64,000 nt of DNA from an uncultured Kiritimatiellota bacterium (lineage in GTDB: Bacteria > Verrucomicrobiota > Kiritimatiellia > RFP12 > DVOR01). The notes under the pieces are model-generated. The model made no database searches and was not told the DNA's origin. It worked only from the letters and a program-made list of their open reading frames with translations. A program made the translations under genes and the position numbers. The DNA is taken from contig CALXOF010000001.1 in NCBI GenBank assembly GCA_944389945.1, positions 3,016 to 67,015 on the forward strand, in the 5' to 3' direction. How positions within the stretch are numbered: position 1 is the stretch's first letter; every line of letters begins with the position of its first letter. Below are positions 5,903 through 52,620 of the stretch, in pieces.

Positions 5903-6009
5903 AAACCCTTAAGGGTCCGCCCTGAGACCCTATAGTGGTCCGAGGTCAACCACTATAGTGGTCGGGGTCGAGACCCTATAGTGGTCCAGGTCGAAACCCT
6001 TAAGGGTTC
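5903..6009. repeat. MITE-like palindrome array (copy 1): aacccttaagggt ends flanking 3 x gacc(c/a)ctatagtggtc
   Basis: Perfect 16-bp palindrome GACCACTATAGTGGTC and variants at a 24-25 bp period. Terminal 13-bp palindrome AACCCTTAAGGGT. Same element at 21688, 35648 and (variant) 51724. Confidence 0.8.
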
Positions 6010-12232: not shown

Positions 12233-12259
12233 TTGACTCGGGGGGGGGTAAGCTATACT
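12233..12259 (+). promoter_or_regulatory. Promoter-like TTGACT-15 nt-TATACT with G9 homopolymer in the spacer
   Basis: TTGACT at 12233-12238. The G run spans 12240-12248. TATACT at 12254-12259. The ATG of the downstream gene is at 12285. Confidence 0.4.
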
Positions 12260-12284: not shown

Positions 12285-13175
12285 TTGATGATGGCCCACT
12301 CCGGTAACATTCTCTTTTTGGGTGGCGATGACGCCCAACGCAAGGCAATTCAGGCCGCGCTGAAACAGGCGTGCATGGGGCATGCGCTCTGGGACTTCTC
12401 TGAAGATGTCGAGAGGGGCAAGCAGACGCTCTCTTTTATTAATGGGACGCGTGTCTGCACCTTTGCATTTCGCCCACTTCCCGAAGACGTCCTTGCTTGC
12501 CGCAAGGCGGCTGCAGGGGTGGGCGTGACCTTTTTGGTTTGCATGGTGGAGGCCTCCGGTGAACCGTCCCAGTCCGTCTCACAGGCGTTGGAGGCGTTGC
12601 GGCAAGACCCGGCCTCCCCGACCGTCTATCCGCTTCTTTTGCTCGGAGCGAACCCCACGCAGATGGAGCGCGCGCTTCTGAAGTGGGGTGGGATGGGGCT
12701 TTCTCTTGGGGGCTCGCCGGATGCGCCTTATGGCATGAATGCTCTCTTGGCTCGTTGTCTGCCGTGGATGGCGATGGGCGAGGCACAGGGTGAGCTCACT
12801 GTTGCGGAGGTCGAGACGTTCTGGGGCGACTATTGCCGCTATGGCACCCTCAAGGCCCTCAATCGCTTGACGTTGCGCCTCAAGGACGAAGGCATTCTCG
12901 CGCCGCTTGACTATGCCTGGTTCCTTCCGCAAGGGACGCGCACCGTGCTCTCAGAGGACGTCCGCGCCGACCTCACAAAGTTGGTGTCGCTCTTGCCAAA
13001 GAGCGGTTGTAGCGCCCTCACCGTGGCCGCTCGCAAGCAATACATCGCGCGAATCGACCGCTTGGAACTCAACACCTTCCAAGTGCGGGAGTGGCGCACC
13101 GCTTTCACGATAGCGCTAAAGGCCGCAAAGTTCGAGAAGGAAAAGCCCGCCCTGCCCGCGCGGGGGGAGGGGTAA
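12285..13175 (+). CDS. Hypothetical protein (lower-GC gene)
   Basis: 296-aa ORF with no recognisable motifs. Local GC is clearly below the window average. Confidence 0.5.
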   Translation: MMMAHSGNILFLGGDDAQRKAIQAALKQACMGHALWDFSEDVERGKQTLSFINGTRVCTFAFRPLPEDVLACRKAAAGVGVTFLVCMVEASGEPSQSVSQALEALRQDPASPTVYPLLLLGANPTQMERALLKWGGMGLSLGGSPDAPYGMNALLARCLPWMAMGEAQGELTVAEVETFWGDYCRYGTLKALNRLTLRLKDEGILAPLDYAWFLPQGTRTVLSEDVRADLTKLVSLLPKSGCSALTVAARKQYIARIDRLELNTFQVREWRTAFTIALKAAKFEKEKPALPARGEG

Positions 13176-19356: not shown

Positions 19357-19989
19357 TTACGAGGGGGCGGAGAGTGCTTCGTAGAGATCTGCGGCCCACG
19401 CGTGTTCGGGACGGGGATATTTGGCAACGAGGCGGCCCTCCACGGTGCGGAAGAGGGGGACCCAATCGGGCTCCTCCCCCGGGGCGACATCTGTCGAGTT
19501 GTCGTAGAAATAGGCACGGTCCACGAAAGTGGCGGCCTCTCCGGCATTGGCCATCGAGCGTGCGTAACGGGTGACAATCTTGTCGATGGGGACAGCGTGG
19601 CCGCCTTGCAAATACCGCGCGGCTACGCGTTTGGCGTTGATCGTGGGCGAATCGGTGCCCACGAAGAAGAGACGAATGAAAAAACCGGCTTGGTGGGCTC
19701 GGAAGAGGAAGTCTAGCTTCTCTTGCGTGGAGAAGACGGTTTCAAAGGCAAAGTCGCGTCCTTCGCGCAGACACGCCTCGCGTCGTTCTGTGGCCAGGCG
19801 TGCGGCAGTCAATATGGATGCTTGGTCGTTCCAACCATTCAACTCTCGTTCCGCGATGTCGTCGGGGTTGATATAGTCGCACCCCACCATCCATTTGTGG
19901 CGCAGGTCGTGCAATTGATGGGTAATGGAAGTCTTGCCGGAACCGTTCGGTCCGGCGACGACGACCAAGCGGGGGCGGAGGGCGCTCAT
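19357..19989 (-). CDS. Zeta-toxin-like / COG4185-type P-loop kinase (putative toxin)
   Basis: Walker A 'VVVAGPNGSGKTS'. About 210 aa. Stop/start overlap (ATGA) with the small upstream ORF. Confidence 0.65.
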   Translation of the reverse strand: MSALRPRLVVVAGPNGSGKTSITHQLHDLRHKWMVGCDYINPDDIAERELNGWNDQASILTAARLATERREACLREGRDFAFETVFSTQEKLDFLFRAHQAGFFIRLFFVGTDSPTINAKRVAARYLQGGHAVPIDKIVTRYARSMANAGEAATFVDRAYFYDNSTDVAPGEEPDWVPLFRTVEGRLVAKYPRPEHAWAADLYEALSAPS

Positions 19990-20165
19990 GAGCGGGCACG
20001 GCCTCTTGCTACGGCGGCGAAGATGCGGCGGCGGAGCTCCGCGTCAAACCGCGCCTGAGCCTCTTGGCCTTTGCGCAAGGTTTCGGCGCCGAAGGCCTTG
20101 ATGACGGCCTCCCATTGCGCCTGGGCCTCCGGGTCGCTTGTGATGGGCTCGCGATTCGCTTTCAT
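19986..20165 (-). CDS. Small protein (59 aa), putative antitoxin partner of zeta-like ATPase
   Basis: 'MKANREPITSDPEAQAQWEAVIKAFGAETLRKGQEAQARFDAELRRRIFAAVARGRARS'. Overlaps the downstream start by 4 nt. Confidence 0.4.
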   Translation of the reverse strand: MKANREPITSDPEAQAQWEAVIKAFGAETLRKGQEAQARFDAELRRRIFAAVARGRARS

Positions 20166-20713
20166 GACAATAGTGTAGCACATTGGAAGGTTGGAAGCTT
20201 GGAGGCTTGGAAGTTTGGCTTTGTTGGTGGGGCTCCGCCCCACACCCCAGCGGAGGAAGTTTGGAAGCTTGGCTTCTCCACGAAGACACGAAGGAGCGCA
20301 AGGGCCTGGGCACAAGGGGCGGCTTGCGCCGCCCCGGAGAACGGAAAACGGAGAACAGAGAACAGAGAGCGCGCGGCAAGCGCGCGATGGGCAAGGCGCT
20401 GTACAGGGCGGCGTCAGCCGCCGTCCTATTCCTCCTACCGCATCGTCTGAGGGCGGTTTTCTTGGGAAAGCGACAAGGCGCGAAGCGGAGGGCGACGGGC
20501 GCGGTCAGCGGCGGAGCCGCAGAGCGACCGATGGAGCCCGAAGCGGTTCGCGCCCCATAGCGTCTTTGCGGTTCGGCGGGGAGCTATTCCTCGGGAGGGG
20601 AGGGGGAATAAAACACGGGTATTAAAAATAAAACTTGCCCCCCCCTTGTGTTATGTTAGCATAATGGTGTTTTCGGACACCTCGCCCGAAGGAATTCAAG
20701 GATTGATGAAATC

Positions 20714-21358
20714 ATGAAACGACTGTTGTTTGCCTCGCTCGTCGCTGTCGCGGCGACCACCCTCCAGGCTGTAAATTACAACTGGACAGCTGTCAATACC
20801 AACAATGCCGCCACCGGCCAGGTGACGCTCGAGAACGGCCTTAGCCACACCAAGGGCTTCGCCGTCAGCCTCACCATCAACGTCACCCAAGTGCCGGCGT
20901 CCATCACCGGTGACTGGTGGCCGGCGATTCTCAGCTTGGGAACCTCTACGGAGAACCGGCCGAACATCACTGCCAACATGGCGGGGGATAACGTCATCCG
21001 CCTTGACACGAAGGCCGGCGACACGGGGAGCACCGCGACCACCATCACGACAGAGTCCTCATTGACCACTGGTAAGCACACGATTGTTCTGGCCTACGAT
21101 GGTACGAATATGACGCTGACTCTGGATGGGACCCAGATTGCCACGACCGCTTACACCCTGACCTACGACCCGAACCTCGTGGCTTGGGGCCAGCAGGCCG
21201 GATATCCGAATGACACGTACCTGAACGCCAACGACCAGTTCCAGTACACGATTGAGTCGTTGCAGGTCGGTCGGGTGGAGACCATCCCCGAGCCGACGGC
21301 GCTGGCGTTGCTCGCCCTTGGCGTGGCCGGCGTGGCCCTCCGCCGCCGCGTGGCTTAA
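20714..21358 (+). CDS. PEP-CTERM sorting-domain secreted protein (LamG-like)
   Basis: Signal peptide 'MKRLLFASLVAVAATTLQA'. C-terminus 'PEPTALALLALGVAGVALRRRVA'. C8 tract in the promoter at 20656-20663. Confidence 0.85.
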   Translation: MKRLLFASLVAVAATTLQAVNYNWTAVNTNNAATGQVTLENGLSHTKGFAVSLTINVTQVPASITGDWWPAILSLGTSTENRPNITANMAGDNVIRLDTKAGDTGSTATTITTESSLTTGKHTIVLAYDGTNMTLTLDGTQIATTAYTLTYDPNLVAWGQQAGYPNDTYLNANDQFQYTIESLQVGRVETIPEPTALALLALGVAGVALRRRVA

Positions 21359-23442: not shown

Positions 23443-23699
23443 AACCGTGGGAGCGGGGGTGTTGAGTGGGGAGAACGGAAAACGGAGAACGGAGAACGGA
23501 GAACAGAGAACGGAGCGTGCAGGCGCGAAGCGCCAAACCTTCCACGGCTACAGAACGCTCCTGCGGGGCGACGGTCAGGCCGTGTGCATTACTGTTTGCA
23601 GCCTTTGCTTTGCCATGCTGACCGAGGAATAATTTGGCGCCCGCTTGCCGGACGCATCTGTTCTCCGTTCTCTGTTCTCTGGGGCGGCAACGCCGCCCC

Positions 23700-31294: not shown

Positions 31295-32209
31295 CTACCG
31301 CACCTCACCGTAGCCGGCGGCCATGTCGTCGCCCAGCATCCGTTCGGCGGTCTCGTCCTCGCACGGCTGCACCCAGCCCTGCTCGAAACCCAAATCCTCC
31401 ACCAGCCCCGCCAGCGGCTCAAAGGCCTCCGGCGACACCCGGCGGTTCCACCCCGGCAAATCCTTGGCCTTGCCCACGGGGTTGTACTGCGCCATCAGGC
31501 TCACCGCCACCCCGGCGCCCAACGCGTTGCGCAGCCACGTCAGGCTCTCGGCCGCCTCATCCTCGCGCCCCGGCAACACGAGGATGCGCACGATCAGGCC
31601 GCGCCGCGCGATGCCTTCGTCGTCCAGCTCCAACGGCCCCAGGCGGTCCCAGAACCAACGGATGGCCTGCCGCGCCGCGTCCACATAGTCCGCCGCGCCG
31701 CTTCCCTCCGCCGCCGTCGCGGACTTCGCGTAGCGCAGATCCGCCAACGCCACATCCGCCAGCTGCGGAAAGGTCGCCAACGTCTCCGTCCGCTCATAGC
31801 TCGACGTGTTGTAGACGAAAGGCAAACGGATGCCCTCGGCCAAGAGCGGCGCCGCCGCCTCCGCGATCTGCGGCAACCACGGCGTGGGCGACACCAGGTT
31901 CCAGTTGTGGCACCCCTGCTCCGCCAACGCGCGCATCCGCGCCGTCAGCTCCGCGATCGGGATGTCCTCGCCCAGTCCGCCGCTGCTCCACTTCGCGTTC
32001 TGGCAATAGACGCACCGCATCGTGCAATGCGAAAAGAAGAGCGTCCCGCTCCCCCGCGTCCCGGAAATCGGTGGTTCCTCCCCAAAATGCGGGCCCCAGC
32101 GGAAGAGCCGCGGCAACGCGCCGCTCCCGCAATACCCCACCTGCCCGTGCGCGCGATCGACGCCGCACCGGCGGGGGCAGAGCTCACAAGATGCCAAAGA
32201 GAAATCCAT
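31295..32209 (-). CDS. Radical-SAM protein, PflX-like (homolog of pyruvate formate-lyase activating enzymes)
   Basis: 'CELCPRRC' and CX3CX2C 'CTMRCVYCQN'. Confidence 0.7.
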   Translation of the reverse strand: MDFSLASCELCPRRCGVDRAHGQVGYCGSGALPRLFRWGPHFGEEPPISGTRGSGTLFFSHCTMRCVYCQNAKWSSGGLGEDIPIAELTARMRALAEQGCHNWNLVSPTPWLPQIAEAAAPLLAEGIRLPFVYNTSSYERTETLATFPQLADVALADLRYAKSATAAEGSGAADYVDAARQAIRWFWDRLGPLELDDEGIARRGLIVRILVLPGREDEAAESLTWLRNALGAGVAVSLMAQYNPVGKAKDLPGWNRRVSPEAFEPLAGLVEDLGFEQGWVQPCEDETAERMLGDDMAAGYGEVR

Positions 32210-32769
32210 AAGCACAATAGTATAGCACATCTCCCTCCGCTTTGCTTGCGCCCGATTTTCAAGAGGAAGTTTGGAGGCTTGGAAGTTTGGAGGCTTGGAG
32301 GAGCCACAGAGGTTGAGTCCCGGGCTGCCGCCCTTGGCGGCGATGAGAGCGGACGTTGCATGGCAAGCGCAGGACTGCCAGAATAGAGAAACCGCCGATT
32401 AGATTGGAAGTTTGGAAGCTTGGAGGTTTGGAAGTTTGGCTGGGCACACCAATTGTCTTGCTGAAGACTGCCAGAATGGGAAAACCGCCGATTACGCAGA
32501 TTAAAGCAGATTAGGGGCCGGCTACCGCCGGCAGGACTGCCAGAATAGGAAACCGCAGATTTCACAGATTTTGGGCAGATTAAGGGCGTGCTGGCGCACG
32601 CAGGACGCGCAATTGGAAGTTTAGAAGTTTGGAGGCTTGGAGGCTTGGCCTTTTTGCGGCTTACGCCGCCCTGTACAGCGCCTCGTCCATCGCCCGCTTG
32701 CGGGCGGTCCTGAATCTCCTGCATCTCCTGAATCTCCTGTTGGGCCATCTGAGGAGTGCGTCCCAAAGA

Positions 32770-32797
32770 AAAAGCCCCGCGGGGCGGGGCTTTTTGG
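32770..32797 (-). terminator. Terminator after PEP-CTERM gene (gccccgcggggcggggc + T-run)
   Basis: Identical hairpins also follow the PEP-CTERM genes ending at 33907 and 34814. Confidence 0.65.
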
Positions 32798-32812
32798 GGA
32801 TTGGGCGGGGGC

Positions 32813-33544
32813 TTAGGCCACGCGGCGGCGGAGGGCCACGCCGGCCACGCCCAGGGCGAGCAACGCCAGCGCCGTCGGCTCGGGGACGGAGGGATCTGGG
32901 TCGGAAGCTTCAGAGGCCGCAATCACTTGGTCGTAGGTCATCCCGGCCACGTAGTCGATGTCCATCGTGTAGGTATCCGCATTATTGTCCCACAGGTTCA
33001 TCCGCACATCGGTGCCGGAATCGCTCGTGCCCTGCTGCCCCCAGACGATGTGGGTCAGCGACTGGGTGGTGGTGTACGTGCCGTACAGGGTGCCGTCGAG
33101 GTAGAAGCTCAGCGTGTTGTTACCGTTCCAAGAGAGGACAAACTCATGGGTCGAGTTCGAGGTGAGCGTGACTTGTTCGCCAATCACCGACGGCGCGTCG
33201 CTCGCGGCCCCAAAGCCAATCGTGCCGCTGCTTTTGTCCGCGCAGTCGGCGTTGAACCGAATCGCCTGGCTGTTACCCTGGAAGGCGGCACCAATGATCG
33301 ACGGGTATTTCTGCCCACCGTTCGTGTAGGCGTTGATTGTTCCGGCGCTGAGGACGGCGGAGAGGGTCCATGAGCCGGAGCCAAGGTTGACCTGGTTCGA
33401 GCCAGTTCCGACGGTCATGGAACCGGAACTGGTCTTTGTGCCGAGGTCAACGTGGCCGGTGATCTTGTCCCAGTTGATGTTTGCCGCTTGGGTGGCGCCG
33501 AAGGCGAGTGCGGCGAGAGCGAGGGTGAGGAGTTTGCGTGTCAT
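32813..33544 (-). CDS. PEP-CTERM sorting-domain secreted protein (LamG-like)
   Basis: Signal peptide 'MTRKLLTLALAALAFGATQA'. C-terminal 'VPEPTALALLALGVAGVALRRRVA'. G9/C9 tract in the promoter at 33625-33633. Confidence 0.85.
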   Translation of the reverse strand: MTRKLLTLALAALAFGATQAANINWDKITGHVDLGTKTSSGSMTVGTGSNQVNLGSGSWTLSAVLSAGTINAYTNGGQKYPSIIGAAFQGNSQAIRFNADCADKSSGTIGFGAASDAPSVIGEQVTLTSNSTHEFVLSWNGNNTLSFYLDGTLYGTYTTTQSLTHIVWGQQGTSDSGTDVRMNLWDNNADTYTMDIDYVAGMTYDQVIAASEASDPDPSVPEPTALALLALGVAGVALRRRVA

Positions 33545-33865
33545 CTATGTCCCAACTTTCCGGTGTGTACACCTATCTTACAGGAAGGAATCCTGAAGAC
33601 TGTTTGCATATTAGCATAACTTTAGGGGGGGGGCAAGTGTTATTTAGAGGAAGCTTGGAAGTTTGGAGGCTTGGAAGTTTGGTTCTCGGGGAGGGGCGTT
33701 GCCCCACACCCTGCTTTTCTTCTTTAGAAAAGGTTGCAAGGCGCGAAACGGAGGGCGGCGGGCGCGGTCAGCGGCGAAGCCGCAGGGCGCCCGATGGAGC
33801 CCGAAGCGGTTCGCGCCCACAGTTGCGTCTTTGCGGTTCTCATTAATGGTGAGTGGGCAAAGAAA

Positions 33866-33893
33866 AAGCCCCGCGGGAGCGGGGCTTTTTGGG
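33866..33893 (-). terminator. Terminator after PEP-CTERM gene
   Basis: aaaaagccccgcgggagcggggcttttt. Confidence 0.65.
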
Positions 33894-33906
33894 GATTGGC
33901 GGGGGC

Positions 33907-34602
33907 TTAGGCCACGCGGCGGCGGAGGGCCACGCCGGCCACGCCAAGGGCGAGCAACGCCAAGGCCGTCGGCTCGGGGACGGAAGGATCCGGGTCGGGT
34001 TCCGGCAGGACAGCGGTCATCTGGGCGACCATGCGATCAATCTCCTCTTGGGTGAGGATGCCTTCATAGGCCGCCGTCTCATTGATGGTCCAGGCATCGT
34101 TCGCGAAGGTGGAGACAATGATATTTTCGGACGTGTTCGTATCCAAGACGGAGAAGAGCTGCACACCATTCGCGTAGCCGGTGATGGTGGCTTGATTGTT
34201 CGCGTTGCGCTCAATCGTGATGGTGAGCAGGTATTTCGTACCGACCGAAAGGGTTGGGGTATTGCTTGTGGTTCCCCAGCCAGTCTCAGAACCACCCTTC
34301 TTTTCCACGCCGATATGGCCATTGAGGGCATTCCCGGAGCCATACATATAGGCATAGGCGTGTCCGGCATCCCAGAGGCCGAGATCTGCGATGGCGGCTT
34401 GTTCTGTGCTGGCAGCCGTCGCATTCGCGGTCACCACCATGGCATAGGAGAGCGTTTTGGTGGAGGTAGAACCTTCCGTGGCGAAGTATTTATCGGTGTA
34501 GATGCTGTTCTCGGCTCCGGTTTGCCACTGCATGGTGACAGCCTGGGCGGAGAGGGCGAGGCCGGCGGCGGCACAAGCCAAGGCAAAACGTACGCATTTC
34601 AT
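33907..34602 (-). CDS. PEP-CTERM sorting-domain secreted protein
   Basis: Start at Met160 of track ORF 33907..35079 ('MKCVRFALACAAAGLALSAQA'). PEP-CTERM tail. G8 tract at 34680-34687 upstream. Confidence 0.8.
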   Translation of the reverse strand: MKCVRFALACAAAGLALSAQAVTMQWQTGAENSIYTDKYFATEGSTSTKTLSYAMVVTANATAASTEQAAIADLGLWDAGHAYAYMYGSGNALNGHIGVEKKGGSETGWGTTSNTPTLSVGTKYLLTITIERNANNQATITGYANGVQLFSVLDTNTSENIIVSTFANDAWTINETAAYEGILTQEEIDRMVAQMTAVLPEPDPDPSVPEPTALALLALGVAGVALRRRVA

Positions 34603-34768
34603 GGGTGTGTCCTTCGTCCCACGGGGGGCAGGACATCTGCCCGATTCACATGGAACGCCATTAAGATAGCACAAGTGACGGGGGGGGCAAGTGTTATTTA
34701 TTGTGTCAAGGCGCAACAAGGGAAGATTGGGGGCTTGGAAGGTTGGTTTCAAGCGGAGAATGGCAAAG

Positions 34769-34797
34769 AAAAAGCCCCGCGGGGGCGGGGCTTTTTG
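34769..34797 (-). terminator. Terminator after PEP-CTERM gene
   Basis: aaaaagccccgcgggggcggggcttttt. Confidence 0.65.
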
Positions 34798-34813
34798 GGG
34801 GATGGGCGGGGGC

Positions 34814-35491
34814 TTAGGCCACGCGGCGGCGGAGGGCCACGCCGGCCACGCCGAGGGCGAGCAACGCCAGGGCGGTCGGCTCAGGGATGTTGGTCGGCAT
34901 AATCGCGGATCCCGCGTCAACCAGCTTGGTGATCTCATCCGTGGTGAGGGTGCCATCATAAGTGGCCGCATCGTTGAAGGTCCACGCGGCATTGTTGGCG
35001 AAGGTCGCCGTGAGGGCGCCATCGGTGGGCTCAAGGATGGGATTGGCGTTGCCATTGAACGTAATTGGGGTCGTCCCATTGTTGATATAGAGCGTCACGT
35101 TCCAACGGTTGTTGGTGGAATCCCAGGTGCCATTGATCACCACGATGTGCGAGCCGGACGCAAGCGAACTATTGTTGTCCGTCCAAGTCGTAGCGTTAGA
35201 AGTCGTACTGTCGAAGTGGGCGCCAAAGCCATTCGCGGCGGAATAGGCCAAGAGACCGACAGCAGTGTCATCTCGCGTGGAGGTCCCGAAGGTCACCATG
35301 CTGGAGTTCTCGAGAGACTGGCCGGAGAAGGTCGTCGTGATCTTCACGGCGAGGGCGAAGTCGGCCTTCGCGTCACTCGAGCCGAAGATTTCCTGCGAGC
35401 CAGGGACGGTCGTGCTGCTCCAGGTCATATTCGCGGCGGAGGCAACCGTCGCCAGGCCAAGGGCCGCAATCAATCCAAGACAACGTTTCAT
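34814..35491 (-). CDS. PEP-CTERM sorting-domain secreted protein (LamG-like)
   Basis: Signal peptide 'MKRCLGLIAALGLATVASA'. PEP-CTERM tail. TTGACG-N18-TATTAT promoter with a G9 spacer tract (plus-strand C9 at 35573-35581). Confidence 0.85.
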   Translation of the reverse strand: MKRCLGLIAALGLATVASAANMTWSSTTVPGSQEIFGSSDAKADFALAVKITTTFSGQSLENSSMVTFGTSTRDDTAVGLLAYSAANGFGAHFDSTTSNATTWTDNNSSLASGSHIVVINGTWDSTNNRWNVTLYINNGTTPITFNGNANPILEPTDGALTATFANNAAWTFNDAATYDGTLTTDEITKLVDAGSAIMPTNIPEPTALALLALGVAGVALRRRVA

Positions 35492-35647
35492 GTCCTGCTA
35501 TCCTTTCTGTGTCGCGGCAACCACGTCGCGATTTATCAGCAATTCCATACTGATGAAGTAAATAATAGTCTACCCCCCCCCGTTTCGTCAAGTCTTTTTT
35601 TGCCTCTTGTGGGGCTTCGCGACTCCGGCCTCAAAAGGGGTCTTGGA

Positions 35648-35754
35648 GAAACCCTTAAGGGTCCGCGGTGAGACCCTATAGTGGTCGGAGGTCAACCACT
35701 ATAGTGGTCGGGGTCGAGACCCTATAGTGGTCCGACCCGAAACCCTTAAGGGTC
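35648..35754. repeat. MITE-like palindrome array (copy 3)
   Basis: aacccttaagggtc ... gaccctatagtggtc ... gaccactatagtggtc ... gaccctatagtggtc ... aacccttaagggtc. Confidence 0.8.
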
Positions 35755-36037
35755 GGCTGACGCCGCCCCTGGAGAACGGAAAACGGAGCGTGTAGGCGCG
35801 AAGCGCCAAACCTTCCACGGCCACGGAGAACAGAGAACGCCCCTTTGGGGCGACCGGCGAAGCCATTGTACAAAGCGGCGAAGCCGCCGTCCTATAGGTC
35901 CTATATGTCCTACCGCGATGCCTATTGGCACGTCGCAGACGTGCCGGGGGTGCAGGGAGAACTTCTCCCTGCCGGGGGGTGGGGCAGCGCCCCACATTCT
36001 TCCAATCTTCCATTCTTCCAATCAGCTAATCAGCCAA

Positions 36038-36997
36038 TCAGCTTCCCGCCCTTCCTGGGGCGGGAGGAGGTGGCGGGGTGCGGTCGAAGCGGCGGGTGGC
36101 GAGGGCGAGGTAGTGGCGCCAGGTGGGGCGAATGGTGACGCGGGGGAGGAGGTCGCGTTCCGTACGGCGGCGGTGGAAGGGCATGGGGTCGCGTCGGGGG
36201 AGGGGAAGGACGGCGTGGCGGAGGGCGCAGAGGGTGACGCAGAGGAGGAAGGGGAGTCCGCGGGTGAGCCAGAGGCGGGGTCCCCAGAGGCTGCAGGCGG
36301 TGGAGAGGAGGTTGGAGAGGTAGCGGCGCCAGACGCGGCGGCCGGGGAGTGCGCGGGCGGTGGTGCCTTCGGCGTGGGGGACGGGCGGGGGGGGGACGTA
36401 CCAGCATTCCCAGCCGGCGAGCCAGAGGCGGTGGCAGAGGTCGATGTCTTCGCCGTAGCAGAAGTAGGAGGGGCGGAAGAGTCCGCCGGCGGTCTCGATG
36501 GCGGCGCGGCGGAGGAGGAGGCAGGCGCCTTTGCCGGCGAGGACGGGGTGGGGGCGCTCGGCGTGTGGGCCGGGGGGGCGGCGGTAGCCTTGGTGCCAGA
36601 GGATGCCGAGCGGGGTGAGGTATTCGCCGCAGGTGTCGAGGGTGCCGTCGGGGAGGATGAGGGTGGGCTGGAGGGCGGCGAGGTGGGGGTAGGTGTCGAG
36701 GGCGGCTTGGAGGATGCGGATGGGTTCGGCGGCGGGGAGGGTGACGTCGGTGTTGAGGAGGAGGATGTGTTCGCCTTCGGCATGGGGGAGGGCGAGGTTG
36801 TTGCCGCCGGCAAAGCCGAGGTTGCGGGGGGCGCGGAGGAGGGTGACGCCGTCGGGGACGGTGAGGGGGGGCTCGCTGGCGTTGTCGACGACGAGGACTT
36901 GGGCTTCGGGCAGGTGGCGCAGGACGGCGGCCAAGCACCCTGAGAGGAGTTCGGGGTGATTCCAAGCGACAATGATGACGGTCAGCCGCGCATGCAT
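36038..36997 (-). CDS. Family-2 glycosyltransferase
   Basis: 'TVIIVAWN', 'VVDNAS', 'NLGFAGGNN', 'YGEDIDLCHRL'. Confidence 0.85.
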   Translation of the reverse strand: MHARLTVIIVAWNHPELLSGCLAAVLRHLPEAQVLVVDNASEPPLTVPDGVTLLRAPRNLGFAGGNNLALPHAEGEHILLLNTDVTLPAAEPIRILQAALDTYPHLAALQPTLILPDGTLDTCGEYLTPLGILWHQGYRRPPGPHAERPHPVLAGKGACLLLRRAAIETAGGLFRPSYFCYGEDIDLCHRLWLAGWECWYVPPPPVPHAEGTTARALPGRRVWRRYLSNLLSTACSLWGPRLWLTRGLPFLLCVTLCALRHAVLPLPRRDPMPFHRRRTERDLLPRVTIRPTWRHYLALATRRFDRTPPPPPAPGRAGS

Positions 36998-37939
36998 GGG
37001 GAGATTATAACAAAGGAGAACGGAAAACGGAGAACGGAGAACGGAACGCGCGGCAAGCGCGCGACGGGTGAGGGCGCTGGGAGGGCGTGGAAGGTTTGCC
37101 CTGCGGGGCTGACACGAAGGTGCACGAAGGACAAGGGGCGCTGACGCGCCCCGGAGAACGGAGCGTGCAGGCGCGAAGCGCCAAACCTTCCACGGCCACA
37201 GAGAACGGAGAACAGAACGCCCCTGCGGGGCGACGGGTGGAGTGGTGTGCCAGGGCTTCTCGGTCTCATCGCCGCCAAGGGCGGCGGTCCAGGCTTCAAC
37301 CTCTGTGGCTCCTCCAAGCCTCCAAGCTTCTAAACTTCCAAGCTTCCCATAGCCCCTGCACCCCCGGCACGTCTGCGACGTGCCAGAAGGACGACGAGGT
37401 AGGACATATAGGACATATAGGACCTATAGGACGGGGCTACGCCGGAGGACTCCCCAAAACCAAAGCGTGGCGTACGAAGCCCGCCATGCTCCTACAGGCC
37501 CCCGGGCCGGACGTGCGCCTTGCGCGCACGCACGGCCCGCCTTCAGCGTCGCCTTTCTTTGTGTCCTTTGTGAGACCTTGTGTCCTTTGTGATAAATCCA
37601 CACTAGCAGTCCTGCGTGCGCTAGCACGCCCTTAATCTGCAACAAATCTGTGAAATCTGCGGTTCCCCTGCGTCGTGCTCTTAGCCGTGGAAGGTTTGGC
37701 GCTTCGCGCCTGCACGGTGTCTCTTTGTGGTCCTTCGTGTTCTTTGTGATAGCCGCGCAGCGTTCGGTCTCATCGCCGCCAGGGGCGGCGGCCCGGGCTT
37801 TCACCTCTGCGGCTCCTCCAAGCCTCTAAACTTCCAAACTTTCAAGCTTCTACGGGGGCGCTTTGCGCCCCCGTAAGCGGCGCGACGGCACAAAAAAAGG
37901 CCCCCGGATGGGGGGCCTTTTGTGCCGAGTCAGCGACGC
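36998..37939. repeat. Mosaic repeat block (heptad GAGAACG tracts, gcgcgcggcaagcgcgcg hairpin, ggtctcatcgccgccaagggcggcgg module, cacg..ctagcacgcccttaatctgc module)
   Basis: All modules recur elsewhere in the window in different orders (see findings). Confidence 0.7.
37893..37920 (-). terminator. Terminator after gap
   Basis: Minus strand: ggccccccatccgggggcc followed by T7. Confidence 0.7.
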
Positions 37940-39722
<1,783 letters not shown>

Positions 39723-50275: not shown

Positions 50276-51300
50276 CCAAATCTTATCCGCCTTCCTCTGC
50301 ATTAGCAGAAGTATAGCAAATCCACCCCCGCCCACAAAACGGTTTTTTGGAAGTTTGGAAGCTTAGAAGTTTGGAGGAGCCACAGAGGTGAAAGCCCGAC
50401 CCGCCGCCCCTGGCGGCGATGAGACCGAACGCTGCGCGGCTATCACCGTGCAGGCCCAAAGGGCCAAACCTTCCACGGCTAAGAACACGAAGAACCACAA
50501 AGGTACACAAAGAGCACGACGCAGGGGGCGGGCCGTGCGTGTGCGCAAGGCGCACGTCTGGCCCGGGGGCCTGAAGGGGCATGGCGGGCTTCGCACGCCA
50601 TGCTTTGGTTTTGGGGAGTCCTCTGGCGTCAGCCCCGTCCTATAGGTCTTATACGTCCTATATGTCCTACCGCGTCGCCATTTGGTACGTTGGTGCAGGG
50701 GCGGCTTGGAAGTTTGGTCAACGGCCTTGTCCGTCGCGCGTTTACGCGCGCTCCTGCATCTCCTGCATCTCCTGCATCTCCTGCTGGGGTGTCCTTCTGG
50801 CACGTCCGCAGGGCGTGCCGCCGGTGCAGGTGCAACTTGCACCTGCCGGGGTCAAGGGGCGGCGCCCCTTGCGGGGCGTGGGGCAGCGCCCCACACCCTT
50901 CAATCAACCAATCAGCTAATCAGCCAAAATCCCCTTTGTGTCCTTAGCCGTGGAAGGTTTGTCGCTTCGCGCCTGCACGGTGTCCTTTGTGATTTCCAAT
51001 CCATTCTGGCAGTCCTGCCGGCGGTAGCCGGCCCAAAAATCTGCTCTAATCTGCGCAATCTGCGGTTCCTCACACTGGCAGTCCTTCTCCCTTCGTGCCC
51101 CTTCGTGCACCTTCGTGTCAGCCCCGCAGGGTAAACCTTCCACACCCTCCCAGCGGCTCCGTCCCTTGCGCCTTTTTGTGTCTTCGTGGAAAGAGGGAAG
51201 CGATTTTTCTTGCATACTGGCTCACGTTATGCTATCTTCTTCACCCGCAATGGAAACCCAGCCAGGTTTCCGTCACCCATTTGTTTACGAGAAAGCAAGG
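50276..51300. repeat. Mosaic repeat block
   Basis: ttggaagcttagaagtttggagg octads, ggtctcatcgccgcc module reverse-complemented, ataggac octads, degenerate triple-hairpin module, aatcagctaatcagcc heptads, gattagagcagattttt module. Confidence 0.7.
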
Positions 51301-51308
51301 ACCATAAC

Positions 51309-51572
51309 ATGCCTAACATCAAGAGCGCCGCCAAGCGTGTGAAGACCGCCGCCAAGGCCAACCTGCGCAACCGCTCCGTCAAGAGCGAGCTCCTTACCTA
51401 CCGCAAAAAGGTCGAGGCCGCCATCGCCGGTGGCGACAAGACCGCCGCCTTCGCCGCCGTCTCCGCCTACGCTTCCAAGCTGGACAAGGCCGCCAAGAAG
51501 GGCGTGATCAAGCGCAACACCGCTGACCGCAAGAAATCCCGCACCGCCCAAGCCATCGCCAAGATGGCCTAA
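51309..51572 (+). CDS. rpsT: 30S ribosomal protein S20
   Basis: 'MPNIKSAAKRVKTAAKANLRNRSVKSELLTYRKK...' with an AAGGA ribosome-binding site. The track start at 51186 is rejected. Confidence 0.95.
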   Translation: MPNIKSAAKRVKTAAKANLRNRSVKSELLTYRKKVEAAIAGGDKTAAFAAVSAYASKLDKAAKKGVIKRNTADRKKSRTAQAIAKMA

Positions 51573-51612
51573 CCCGCCCGCGCCGCCGCGCGGCGTAGGC
51601 CGGTCCATGGCT

Positions 51613-51662
51613 CAATGGGACAAGAGAAGGGGCGCCCTCAGGCGCGCCTCTTCTCTTTTTTT
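51613..51662 (+). terminator. Probable terminator after rpsT
   Basis: GC hairpin ggggcgccctcaggcgcgcc followed by tcttctcttttttt. Confidence 0.5.
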
Positions 51663-51723
51663 GTCTTTTCTCCCCTCGCGCAAGGGTCAATGCGCACCCC
51701 AAAATCCCTAAATCCCCCTTCCC

Positions 51724-51834
51724 AGACCCTATAGGGGTCGGCCCCGAGACCCTATAGTGGTCCGGGTTGAGACCCTATAGTGGTCCGGGTTGAGACCCTA
51801 TAGTGGTCCACTGCGAGACCCTATAGTGGTCCGG
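51724..51834. repeat. Palindrome array (copy 4, variant): five gaccctatagtggtc units at a regular 24-bp period, without the aacccttaagggt ends
   Basis: Units begin at about 51724, 51747, 51771, 51795 and 51819. Spacers of 9 nt are ggccccgag, cgggttgag, cgggttgag, cactgcgag. Confidence 0.8.
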
Positions 51835-52620
51835 GAAGGGGTGGCGTGCACCACCCCGGAGAACAGAGAACGGAGAACAGAGAACAGAACGCGCGGCAAG
51901 CGCGCGACGGACAAGCCGCTGGAAGGGTGTGGAGGGTTTACCCTGCGGGGCTGACACGAAGGTTCACGAAGAACCACGAAGGCACACGAAGACTGCCAGA
52001 ATAGTTGAAATCACAAAGGACACCGTGCAGGCGCGAAGCGACAAACCTTCCACGGCTAAGGACACAAAGGGGATTTTGGCTGATTAGCTGATTGGTTGAT
52101 TGAAGGGTGTGGGGCGCTGCCCCACCCCCCGGCAGGGAGAAGTTCTCCCTGCACCCCCGGCACGTCTGCGACGTGCCAGAAGGACAGCGCGGTAGGACAT
52201 ATAGGACGTATAGGACCTATAGGACGGAGCTGATGCCGGAGGACTCCCCAAAAACCAAAGCATGGCGTGCGAAGCCCGCCATGCCCCTACAGGCCCCCCG
52301 GGCCGGACGAGCGCCTTGCGCGCACGCACGGCCCGCCCCCTGCGCCGTGCTTTGTGTCCTTCGTGTCCTTTGTGATTTCCAATCCATTCTGGCAGTCCTG
52401 CCGGCGGTAGCCGGCCCCGAATCGGCTCCAATCGGCGTAATCGGCGGTTTCCTTATTCTGGCAGTCTCAGGCATCGCGGTAGGACATATAGGACCTATAG
52501 GACATATAGGACGGCGGCTGACGCCGCTTGCACAACGATTTTGCCCGTCGCGCGCTTGCCGCGCGCTCTGTTCACTGTTTTCTGTTCTCTGTTCTCTGGG
52601 GCGCGTCAGCGCCCCAATTG
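51835..52620. repeat. Mosaic repeat block
   Basis: GAGAACG tracts, gcgcgcggcaagcgcgcg hairpin, tgattagctgattgg, triple hairpin, ataggac octads, gattacgccgattggagccgattcgggg module. Confidence 0.7.

Follow-up and report, generated by a model that had tools for sequence, protein, structure and literature searches.

In Mycoplasma hyorhinis, the vlp genes form a tandem family of individually transcribed surface-protein genes whose near-identical promoters carry a homopolymer in the spacer, and the family shows combinatorial on/off expression; it was reportedly described by Rosengarten and Wise in 1991, a reference that PMC11868660 lists. In Neisseria meningitidis, the promoters of two outer-surface protein genes have a poly-C tract (opc) or a poly-G tract (porA) in the -35/-10 spacer, and tract length sets expression in a graded way. 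PEP-CTERM/exosortase cargo proteins are widespread and, to our knowledge, of obscure function, and we know of no account of surface variation in uncultured gut Lentisphaerota or Kiritimatiellota. In Bordetella, the C7 and C8 forms of fimX differ about 4-fold in transcript (PMC1891110). Here we analyze a comparable element in a 64,000-nucleotide (nt) stretch, hereafter the window, of contig CALXOF010000001.1 from an uncultured Kiritimatiellota bacterium (assembly GCA_944389945.1). The element, P3, is a putative promoter that contains a run of nine C on the minus strand (C9) and stands ahead of a gene for a 243-residue PEP-CTERM protein (32813..33544, minus strand). From sequence comparison, we put the probability that P3 is a slipped-strand, spacer-length contingency promoter for this secreted-protein gene at roughly 65%. 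Changes in tract length would then probably raise or lower, in a random manner, how strongly individual surface proteins are expressed.

Anatomy of P3 and the gene behind it

The minus strand from 33660 to 33601 reads ttccaagcttcctctaaataacacTTGCCCCCCCCCtaaagttatgcTAATATgcaaaca, with the core excerpt ctctaaataacacTTGCCCCCCCCCtaaagttatgcTAATATgcaaaca. The C9 homopolymer (G9 on the plus strand) occupies 33625..33633; three of its C residues finish a -35-like hexamer, TTGCCC (33631..33636), whose TTG is invariant across all alleles compared, and six lie in the spacer. The spacer (CCCCCC followed by taaagttatgc, 33614..33630) is 17 nt long and contains a TRTGn extended -10 motif (tATGc). It leads into a -10-like hexamer, TAATAT, read from the sequence at 33608..33613, and the TG at 33616-33615 is one base ahead of this hexamer, which is the extended -10 position (tATGcTAATAT). 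The initial annotation had described TTGCCC-17 nt-TAATAT with six C in the spacer, a geometry that proved exact in every detail and from which its further statement, that a one-unit change in the tract would move the spacer to 16 or 18 nt, follows directly. An A-rich block, AAATAA (33640..33645), which is at least 90% conserved across alleles, sits just 5' of the -35 hexamer at the position of an UP element. By sigma-70 geometry, transcription would start near 33601; the ATG at 33544 (open reading frame 32813-33544) is 64 nt past the TAATAT hexamer. With TGn and TAnnnT in place and TTGCCC 17 nt upstream, the arrangement is that of a sigma-70 extended -10 promoter. Inspection of the minus-strand sequence found no sigma-54 -24/-12 element and no extracytoplasmic function (ECF)-type motif at P3, and a sigma-54 promoter, typical for some PEP-CTERM regulons, was ruled out by the lack of GG at -24 relative to TTGC. 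As an uninterrupted mononucleotide run, C9 is long enough for slippage, for which about 7-8 nt or more is taken to suffice.

The 243-residue product combines a signal peptide, a ConA-like/LamG beta-sandwich and a C-terminal PEP-CTERM sorting signal. Its N-terminus is signal-peptide-like by inspection and its sorting signal reads VPEPTALALLALGVAGVALRRRVA, which scores 29.1 bits against PF07589 (Pfam PEP-CTERM; cutoff 20.7) and 21.6 against TIGR02595 (cutoff 16); its scores for the named PEP-CTERM subfamilies are all under their cutoffs. The Pfam Laminin_G_3 match is sub-threshold in this protein and reaches 33 bits (cutoff 27.6) in the paralogue behind P2 (20714-21358). An AlphaFold2 model is a beta-sandwich with a predicted local distance difference test score (pLDDT) of 83, and the best structural matches of this model are to the lectin/LamG-type domains of trans-sialidases, clostridial neurotoxin Hc, thrombospondin-N and PL7 lyases, in agreement with the Laminin_G_3 profile results. 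Together, the signal-peptide-like N-terminus, the PEP-CTERM signal, the lectin-like fold and the hypervariable island described below point to a surface or secreted product. Among the window genes scanned with Pfam, there is no exosortase (EpsH/Xrt), a result whose scope is the window only.

A hairpin followed by a T-run was read by eye 3' of the 243-residue gene, at about 32790-32765, and such terminators stand 3' of each paralogue (located with a scanner and partly by eye). Each gene is thus a separate transcription unit, which must have its own promoter within the 210-360-nt gap that precedes it. A known RNA element in the intergenic DNA or the 5' untranslated regions was considered and rejected: an Rfam E-value scan of 32000-36200 returned nothing close to gathering scores, and the folds of four 5' untranslated regions were no better than those of shuffles (z from -0.1 to -1.9). 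The window is chromosomal, with genes for S16, TrmD, L19, IF-1, S20, GAPDH, LpxC, SMC and type II secretion.

The putative promoter family and its tract lengths

Six G/C runs of at least 8 nt occur in the window, five of them intergenic and one inside the GT2 gene (36387-36395). Five of the six lie between TTG(A/C) and TAnnnT, with a spacer of 15-18 nt, 39-81 nt ahead of a start codon, and four of the five intergenic runs precede all four PEP-CTERM genes of the window: 20714-21358 on the plus strand and 32813-33544, 33907-34602 and 34814-35491 on the minus strand. The promoters follow two designs. Type A, AAATAAmACTTG-C8/9-N11-TAnnnT, comprises P3, P4 and P2. In P4 (34663..34690, minus strand), ahead of the 231-residue PEP-CTERM gene 33907-34602, TTGCCC and TATCTT are 16 nt apart (C8 at 34680-34687), and the same spacing separates TTGCCC from TAGCAT in P2 (20635..20662, plus strand; C8 at 20638-20645), ahead of the 214-residue LamG/PEP-CTERM gene 20714-21358. 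Type B, CTTGAC-N1-4-G9-N5-TATnnT, comprises P5 and P1. P5 (35562..35591, minus strand), ahead of the 225-residue PEP-CTERM gene 34814-35491, has TTGACG, an 18-nt spacer (G9 on the gene strand, 35573-35581) and TATTAT, and matches the consensus at 10/12 positions. The promoter-like P1 (12233..12259, plus strand) has TTGACT, a 15-nt spacer (G9 at 12240-12248) and TATACT; it precedes a 294-residue gene (12291-13175) whose product has no Pfam, NCBIfam or PADLOC match and which is followed by a DUF805 gene. None of 100 shuffles contained the composite motif ACTTG-C8-N9-TGnTAnnnT. Directly upstream of P2, on the minus strand at 19357-20183, there is a putative toxin-antitoxin pair, a zeta-toxin/AAA_33 gene with a 65-residue partner.

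Strain data came from metagenome contigs recovered by exact-protein look-ups, and ten strains were anchored on ribosomal protein S16. Across the 4.86-kb housekeeping flank, these ten differ by 0.6-2.2% single-nucleotide polymorphisms, and nine of the ten show no indels there. In the island, which is bordered by the conserved GT2 and radical-SAM genes, each strain carries two or three PEP-CTERM genes, in very different alleles (221-244 residues). Compared between the window (32813-35491) and L136-L145 and L152-L155, the island alleles are 30-98% identical, and the flanks differ by at most 2% (0.6-2.2% in the housekeeping flank). The island is hypervariable between strains.

In 14 other strains, each of the 35 island genes examined is preceded by a G/C run. 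This run is 7-13 nt long, lies 77-82 nt ahead of the ATG, and is uninterrupted over at least 8 nt in 34 of the 35 promoters, the exception being TTGT-C7 (L154). The consensus of 17 distinct type A alleles is AAATAAcACTTG-Cn-gtnanTTaTGcTAntnT, in which AAATAA, TTG, TRTGn and TA...T are conserved, TRTG in all type A alleles, and the remaining spacer positions drift. The constrained positions coincide with those recognized by RNA polymerase at sigma-70 extended -10 promoters, which is our chief reason for assigning P3 as a promoter and strengthens the assignment made in the initial annotation. Among the island alleles, identical downstream promoter halves are paired with different upstream halves, which suggests a cassette recombination joint in the conserved AAATAACACTTG-Cn core.

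Tract length is polymorphic in five of the six type A alleles found in at least two samples. P4 has C8 in 5 samples and C9 in 7; at P2, 8 samples have C8 and one has C9; the allele 'gagagttatgcTAGTAT' has C8 (4) or C9 (5), 'gttatttatgcTAATGT' has C8 (2) or C12 (1), and 'gttacttatgtTAGTAT' has C8 (1) or C9 (1). The type A totals are 21 C8, 24 C9 and one C12. Of the type B promoters, the allele 'tagatTATCAT', related to P5, occurs with G9, G10 or G13 in other strains, and P1 has G9 in 6/6 samples. The changes can be isolated: L001 and L004, from different samples, are identical over 4197 bp bar one extra C in P4, and the only difference between L033 and L040 over 901 bp is one extra C in P2. Orthologues of the 243-residue gene, behind slightly different promoter alleles, carry C8 in L139 and L154 (98% and 95% amino acid identity) and C9 in L152 and L153 (96% and 95%). 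At the level of the gene, therefore, the tract is not invariant across strains; it is invariance that would have spoken against the initial annotation. The phase variation that the annotation implied is supported for the promoter family (P4, P2) and by the orthologues; for the P3 allele itself the picture is different and is taken up below.

Several further sequence features were noted in the course of this comparison. The GT2 gene (36038-36997, minus strand) carries G9 at 36387-36395 (C9 on the gene strand), where all other strains have CCCCACCCC, with CCA in place of the synonymous CCC. Only the window sequence therefore has the run unbroken, which creates a potential frameshift hotspot. A GT8 glycosyltransferase gene of the same species, absent from the window, starts ATGGATA-C9-AAGCAAC (L137, 10570-10600; L140, 10793; L141, 10826). 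At L144 (11152) the GT8 start reads C8-AGCAAC, 2 nt shorter, a frameshift that leads to a stop codon after about 30 codons; no gene is called there. This GT8 tract is a candidate coding-tract on/off switch.

The intergenic DNA is a mosaic of short tandem arrays, with units of 7-10 nt in 3-6 copies, for example at 20183-20218, 23470-23515, 32265-32439, 33649-33682, 37015-37591, 39049-39701 and 50346-52598. The units include TTGGAAGC, GGAGAAC, TAGGACATA, CACAAAGGA, CAGGAGATT, CTCTGTT and TGGCTGAT, and a 23-nt unit, GAGACCCTATAGTGGTC.., recurs at 5914, 21696, 35670 and 51724. One octamer array adjoins type A promoters. The array directly 5' of P3 (33649..33682, minus strand) is of the GGAAGCTT/AACTTCCAAGC type and belongs to a dispersed intergenic repeat family; AACTTCCAAGC, with at most one mismatch, occurs 18 times in the window against 1.1 expected. 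A pattern scan of metagenome contigs with AATAAMACTTGCCCCCCC was discarded; its 88 matches were almost all from organellar or small-subunit rRNA (...C8-GTATTACCGCGGCTGCTGGCAC) and none came from this organism. The 18-mer AATAACACTTGCCCCCCC (L048-L135) is a trap for such searches, being part of organellar/small-subunit rRNA genes and followed by GTATTACCGCGGCTGCTGGCAC, with a C-run of 7-9 across contigs, and is unrelated to P3.

Proposed slippage and its alternatives

In the mechanism we propose, a sigma-70-type extended -10 promoter (AAATAA, TTGCCC, 17 nt, TGc-TAATAT) would drive a monocistronic ConA/LamG-like gene, and replication slippage at the run would gain or lose single C:G pairs. C8 would give a spacer of 16 nt, C9 one of 17 and C10 one of 18, and the C12 and G13 alleles would reach up to 20-21. 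Each change would alter the distance and the rotational phase of TTG relative to TGnTAnnnT and so shift promoter strength in a heritable and reversible way. With a separate promoter, tract and terminator for each paralogue, both in the island and at the unlinked 20714 gene, a population could present varying combinations and doses of surface proteins. The anatomy, the conserved promoter determinants, the tract ahead of each family member and the length polymorphism, including changes on sequence that is otherwise identical, are observed; in this scheme we infer that RNA polymerase uses P3, that transcription depends on tract length and that switching is fast and reversible. Among the spacers of the window (17 nt at P3, 16 at P4 and P2, 18 at P5 and 15 at P1), that of P3 is optimal, from which the 243-residue gene is predicted to be the best-expressed member by E. 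coli rules.

Several observations weigh against this proposal. The P3 hexamers match the consensus at only 8/12 positions (4/6 and 4/6), below the 9/12 threshold of a generic promoter scanner, which therefore omits P3, and the sigma-70 rules are applied to this lineage by analogy. The exact P3 allele has C9 in 8/8 samples among the matches listed (the window and 7 metagenome assemblies); these samples are near-clonal, with 0-9 differences in 4-7 kb, and the invariance is thus weak evidence. The number of G/C runs is unremarkable, with 10 G8 words against 10.1 expected from dinucleotide-preserving shuffles of the window (64% GC); over-representation of runs of at least 8 nt was accordingly rejected, as counts match the shuffles, and only their placement is non-random. 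About half of the homologous loci in other metagenome-assembled genomes (MAGs) are without a long tract. The lengths themselves are from short-read metagenome consensus assemblies, in which G/C runs of 8-9 nt are error-prone. Finally, a TRTGn extended -10 may make the -35 contact and the spacing less critical, so that the effect may be graded, a "volume control" rather than an on/off switch.

The strongest alternative, which we nevertheless consider unlikely, is a fixed architecture, in which the poly-C/G run has a constant role in structure or recognition, for example as a rigid spacer or as the binding site for a regulator or sigma factor that controls PEP-CTERM genes, and the occasional changes of one unit are neutral noise. 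It would account for the AAATAAcACTTG-Cn core being very conserved, also across species (L009, L012), for the tight clustering of lengths at 8-9 and for the invariance of P3, P5 and P1 in the clonal sample set. However, the run is C in type A and G in type B, at differing offsets from the -35 and -10 elements, which is hard to fit to a single sequence-specific binder; lengths of 10, 11, 12 and 13 occur; and the inspection of P3 described above revealed neither a sigma-54 element nor an ECF-type motif.

The related species bear on the same question. The public genomes closest to the window are MAGs from the human and animal gut that carry the labels 'uncultured Kiritimatiellaeota', Lentisphaeraceae or Candidatus Spyradenecus, from the Planctomycetes-Verrucomicrobia-Chlamydiae (PVC) group, and 25 loci were found by the C-terminal signal in species-representative genomes. 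At about 10 of the ~20 gut PVC MAG loci, a tract of G8-G11 or C8-C9 lies in a promoter of the form TTGAC...TAnnnT whose spacer is 16-18 nt long, as in L017, where the promoter reads TTGACA-gcaa-G10-tcg-TATAAT with a 17-nt spacer. The Planctomycetota, Accumulibacter and gammaproteobacterial matches among the 25 loci have no tracts. Homologous promoters with TTGCCCC, and so only four C, are found in L011 and L021, which shows that a long run is dispensable to this promoter class and counts against a fixed element. That the homopolymer may be C or G on the gene strand, at varying offsets, argues for selection on the homopolymer, and hence on its mutability, rather than on a protein-binding sequence.

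A second alternative, which appears distinctly improbable to us, is that the tract is a hitch-hiking relic, copied from an ancestral promoter along with the gene during duplication or cassette recombination and mutable without being selected. The type A promoters are clearly homologous to each other, and the left and right flanks of the tract do recombine between alleles, as this explanation would have it. An unselected run of 8-9 nt should, however, decay by substitution, and 34/35 runs are uninterrupted over at least 8 nt beside highly diverged spacer positions; runs are also found in unrelated type B promoters and in other genera. Least probable of all is that the tracts are really constant in length and only seem to vary through errors of short-read sequencing or assembly at G/C homopolymers: every comparison sequence is indeed a metagenome assembly, and L040, a contig of 902 bp, probably has low coverage, but random error would be expected to scatter over all tracts, and variation is instead concentrated in certain ones (P4, 5 versus 7; the 'gagag' allele, 4 versus 5), with no variation at P3 (8/8), P5 and P1 in these assemblies. 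Runs of 12 and 13 also occur, and an adjacent non-coding A7 run (35595-35601) is invariant. Strand-independent homopolymers, uninterrupted runs amid diverged spacers and indels concentrated in the tracts are jointly explained by none of these rivals, and we therefore favor the contingency promoter as the reading of P3.

Significance and relation to known systems

The P3 tract appears to be one unit of a locus-wide, clade-wide system, and both this system and the extended -10 TG go beyond what the initial annotation had described. As a broader interpretation, which we advance tentatively and at somewhat less than even odds, gut members of Lentisphaerota/'Kiritimatiellaeota' may share a combinatorial contingency system across the clade, in which every protein of a large family of lectin-like, exosortase-sorted surface proteins has its own promoter with a G/C tract and the AAATAACACTTG-Cn core doubles as the joint for cassette recombination in the strain-variable island. 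In that case, the PVC superphylum would gain its first described contingency promoters, and PEP-CTERM cargo would be linked to stochastic phase variation for the first time. The proposed mechanism is textbook; the novelty lies in its being consistently coupled, in an uncultured gut lineage, to exosortase cargo.

Should expression depend on tract length, these commensals would share the bet-hedging logic of mucosal pathogens (Bordetella, Neisseria, Mycoplasma), which would point to strong fluctuating selection on LamG-like surface lectins, with phage, host immunity or glycan niches as its source. It would also supply a signature with which to search MAGs, namely TTG, a G/C run of at least 8 and TGnTAnnnT about 80 nt ahead of an ATG, and would be directly testable with existing metagenome reads and metatranscriptomes. 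A practical warning is that tract heterogeneity is hidden in consensus MAG assemblies.

In the literature, we found no report of such promoters in Lentisphaerota, Kiritimatiellota/Kiritimatiellae or other PVC bacteria, or ahead of PEP-CTERM genes. Within the PVC group, the nearest precedent is Akkermansia muciniphila, a gut bacterium that also has PEP-CTERM proteins and in which runs of >8 bp lie inside 17 coding genes, for example for capsule, with repeat slippage proposed as a source of phase variation; there, however, the tracts are in coding regions only and are not tied to promoters or to PEP-CTERM genes (PMC3048395). The opc and porA promoters of Neisseria resemble the predicted layout of P3 in placing a G/C homopolymer within the -35/-10 spacer of a surface-protein gene. 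They differ in being single genes with tracts of 9-15 nt, in pathogens with many other contingency loci, whereas the promoters described here belong to a family with a shared design.

By analogy, P3 would work like the classical promoter-spacer contingency loci, the closest of which are the C-stretch of Bordetella fim and then the poly(A) of Mycoplasma vlp. With vlp, the locus would share a tandem family in which each gene has its own promoter and a homopolymer in the -35/-10 spacer. In vlp, about 17-20 nt of poly(A) stand in an AT-rich genome, in contrast to poly-C/G of 8-13 nt at 64% GC here, and the vlp products are lipoproteins with size-variable repeats, whereas these PEP-CTERM proteins are diversified by allelic cassettes. 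The likeness to fim2, fim3, fimX and fimN of Bordetella pertussis and Bordetella bronchiseptica is closer still: both are sets of paralogous genes for surface structures behind a conserved promoter with poly-C 5' of the -10 element, and in both the run length varies between strains, setting the transcript level in Bordetella. In fim, the stretch runs to 10-19 and separates the site of the BvgA activator (the 'fim box') from the -10 element, whereas in P3 the run abuts the TTG of the -35 hexamer and is followed by a TRTGn extended -10. The Bordetella products are fimbrial subunits; those encoded here are exosortase-sorted, LamG-like proteins of a gut commensal of the PVC group.
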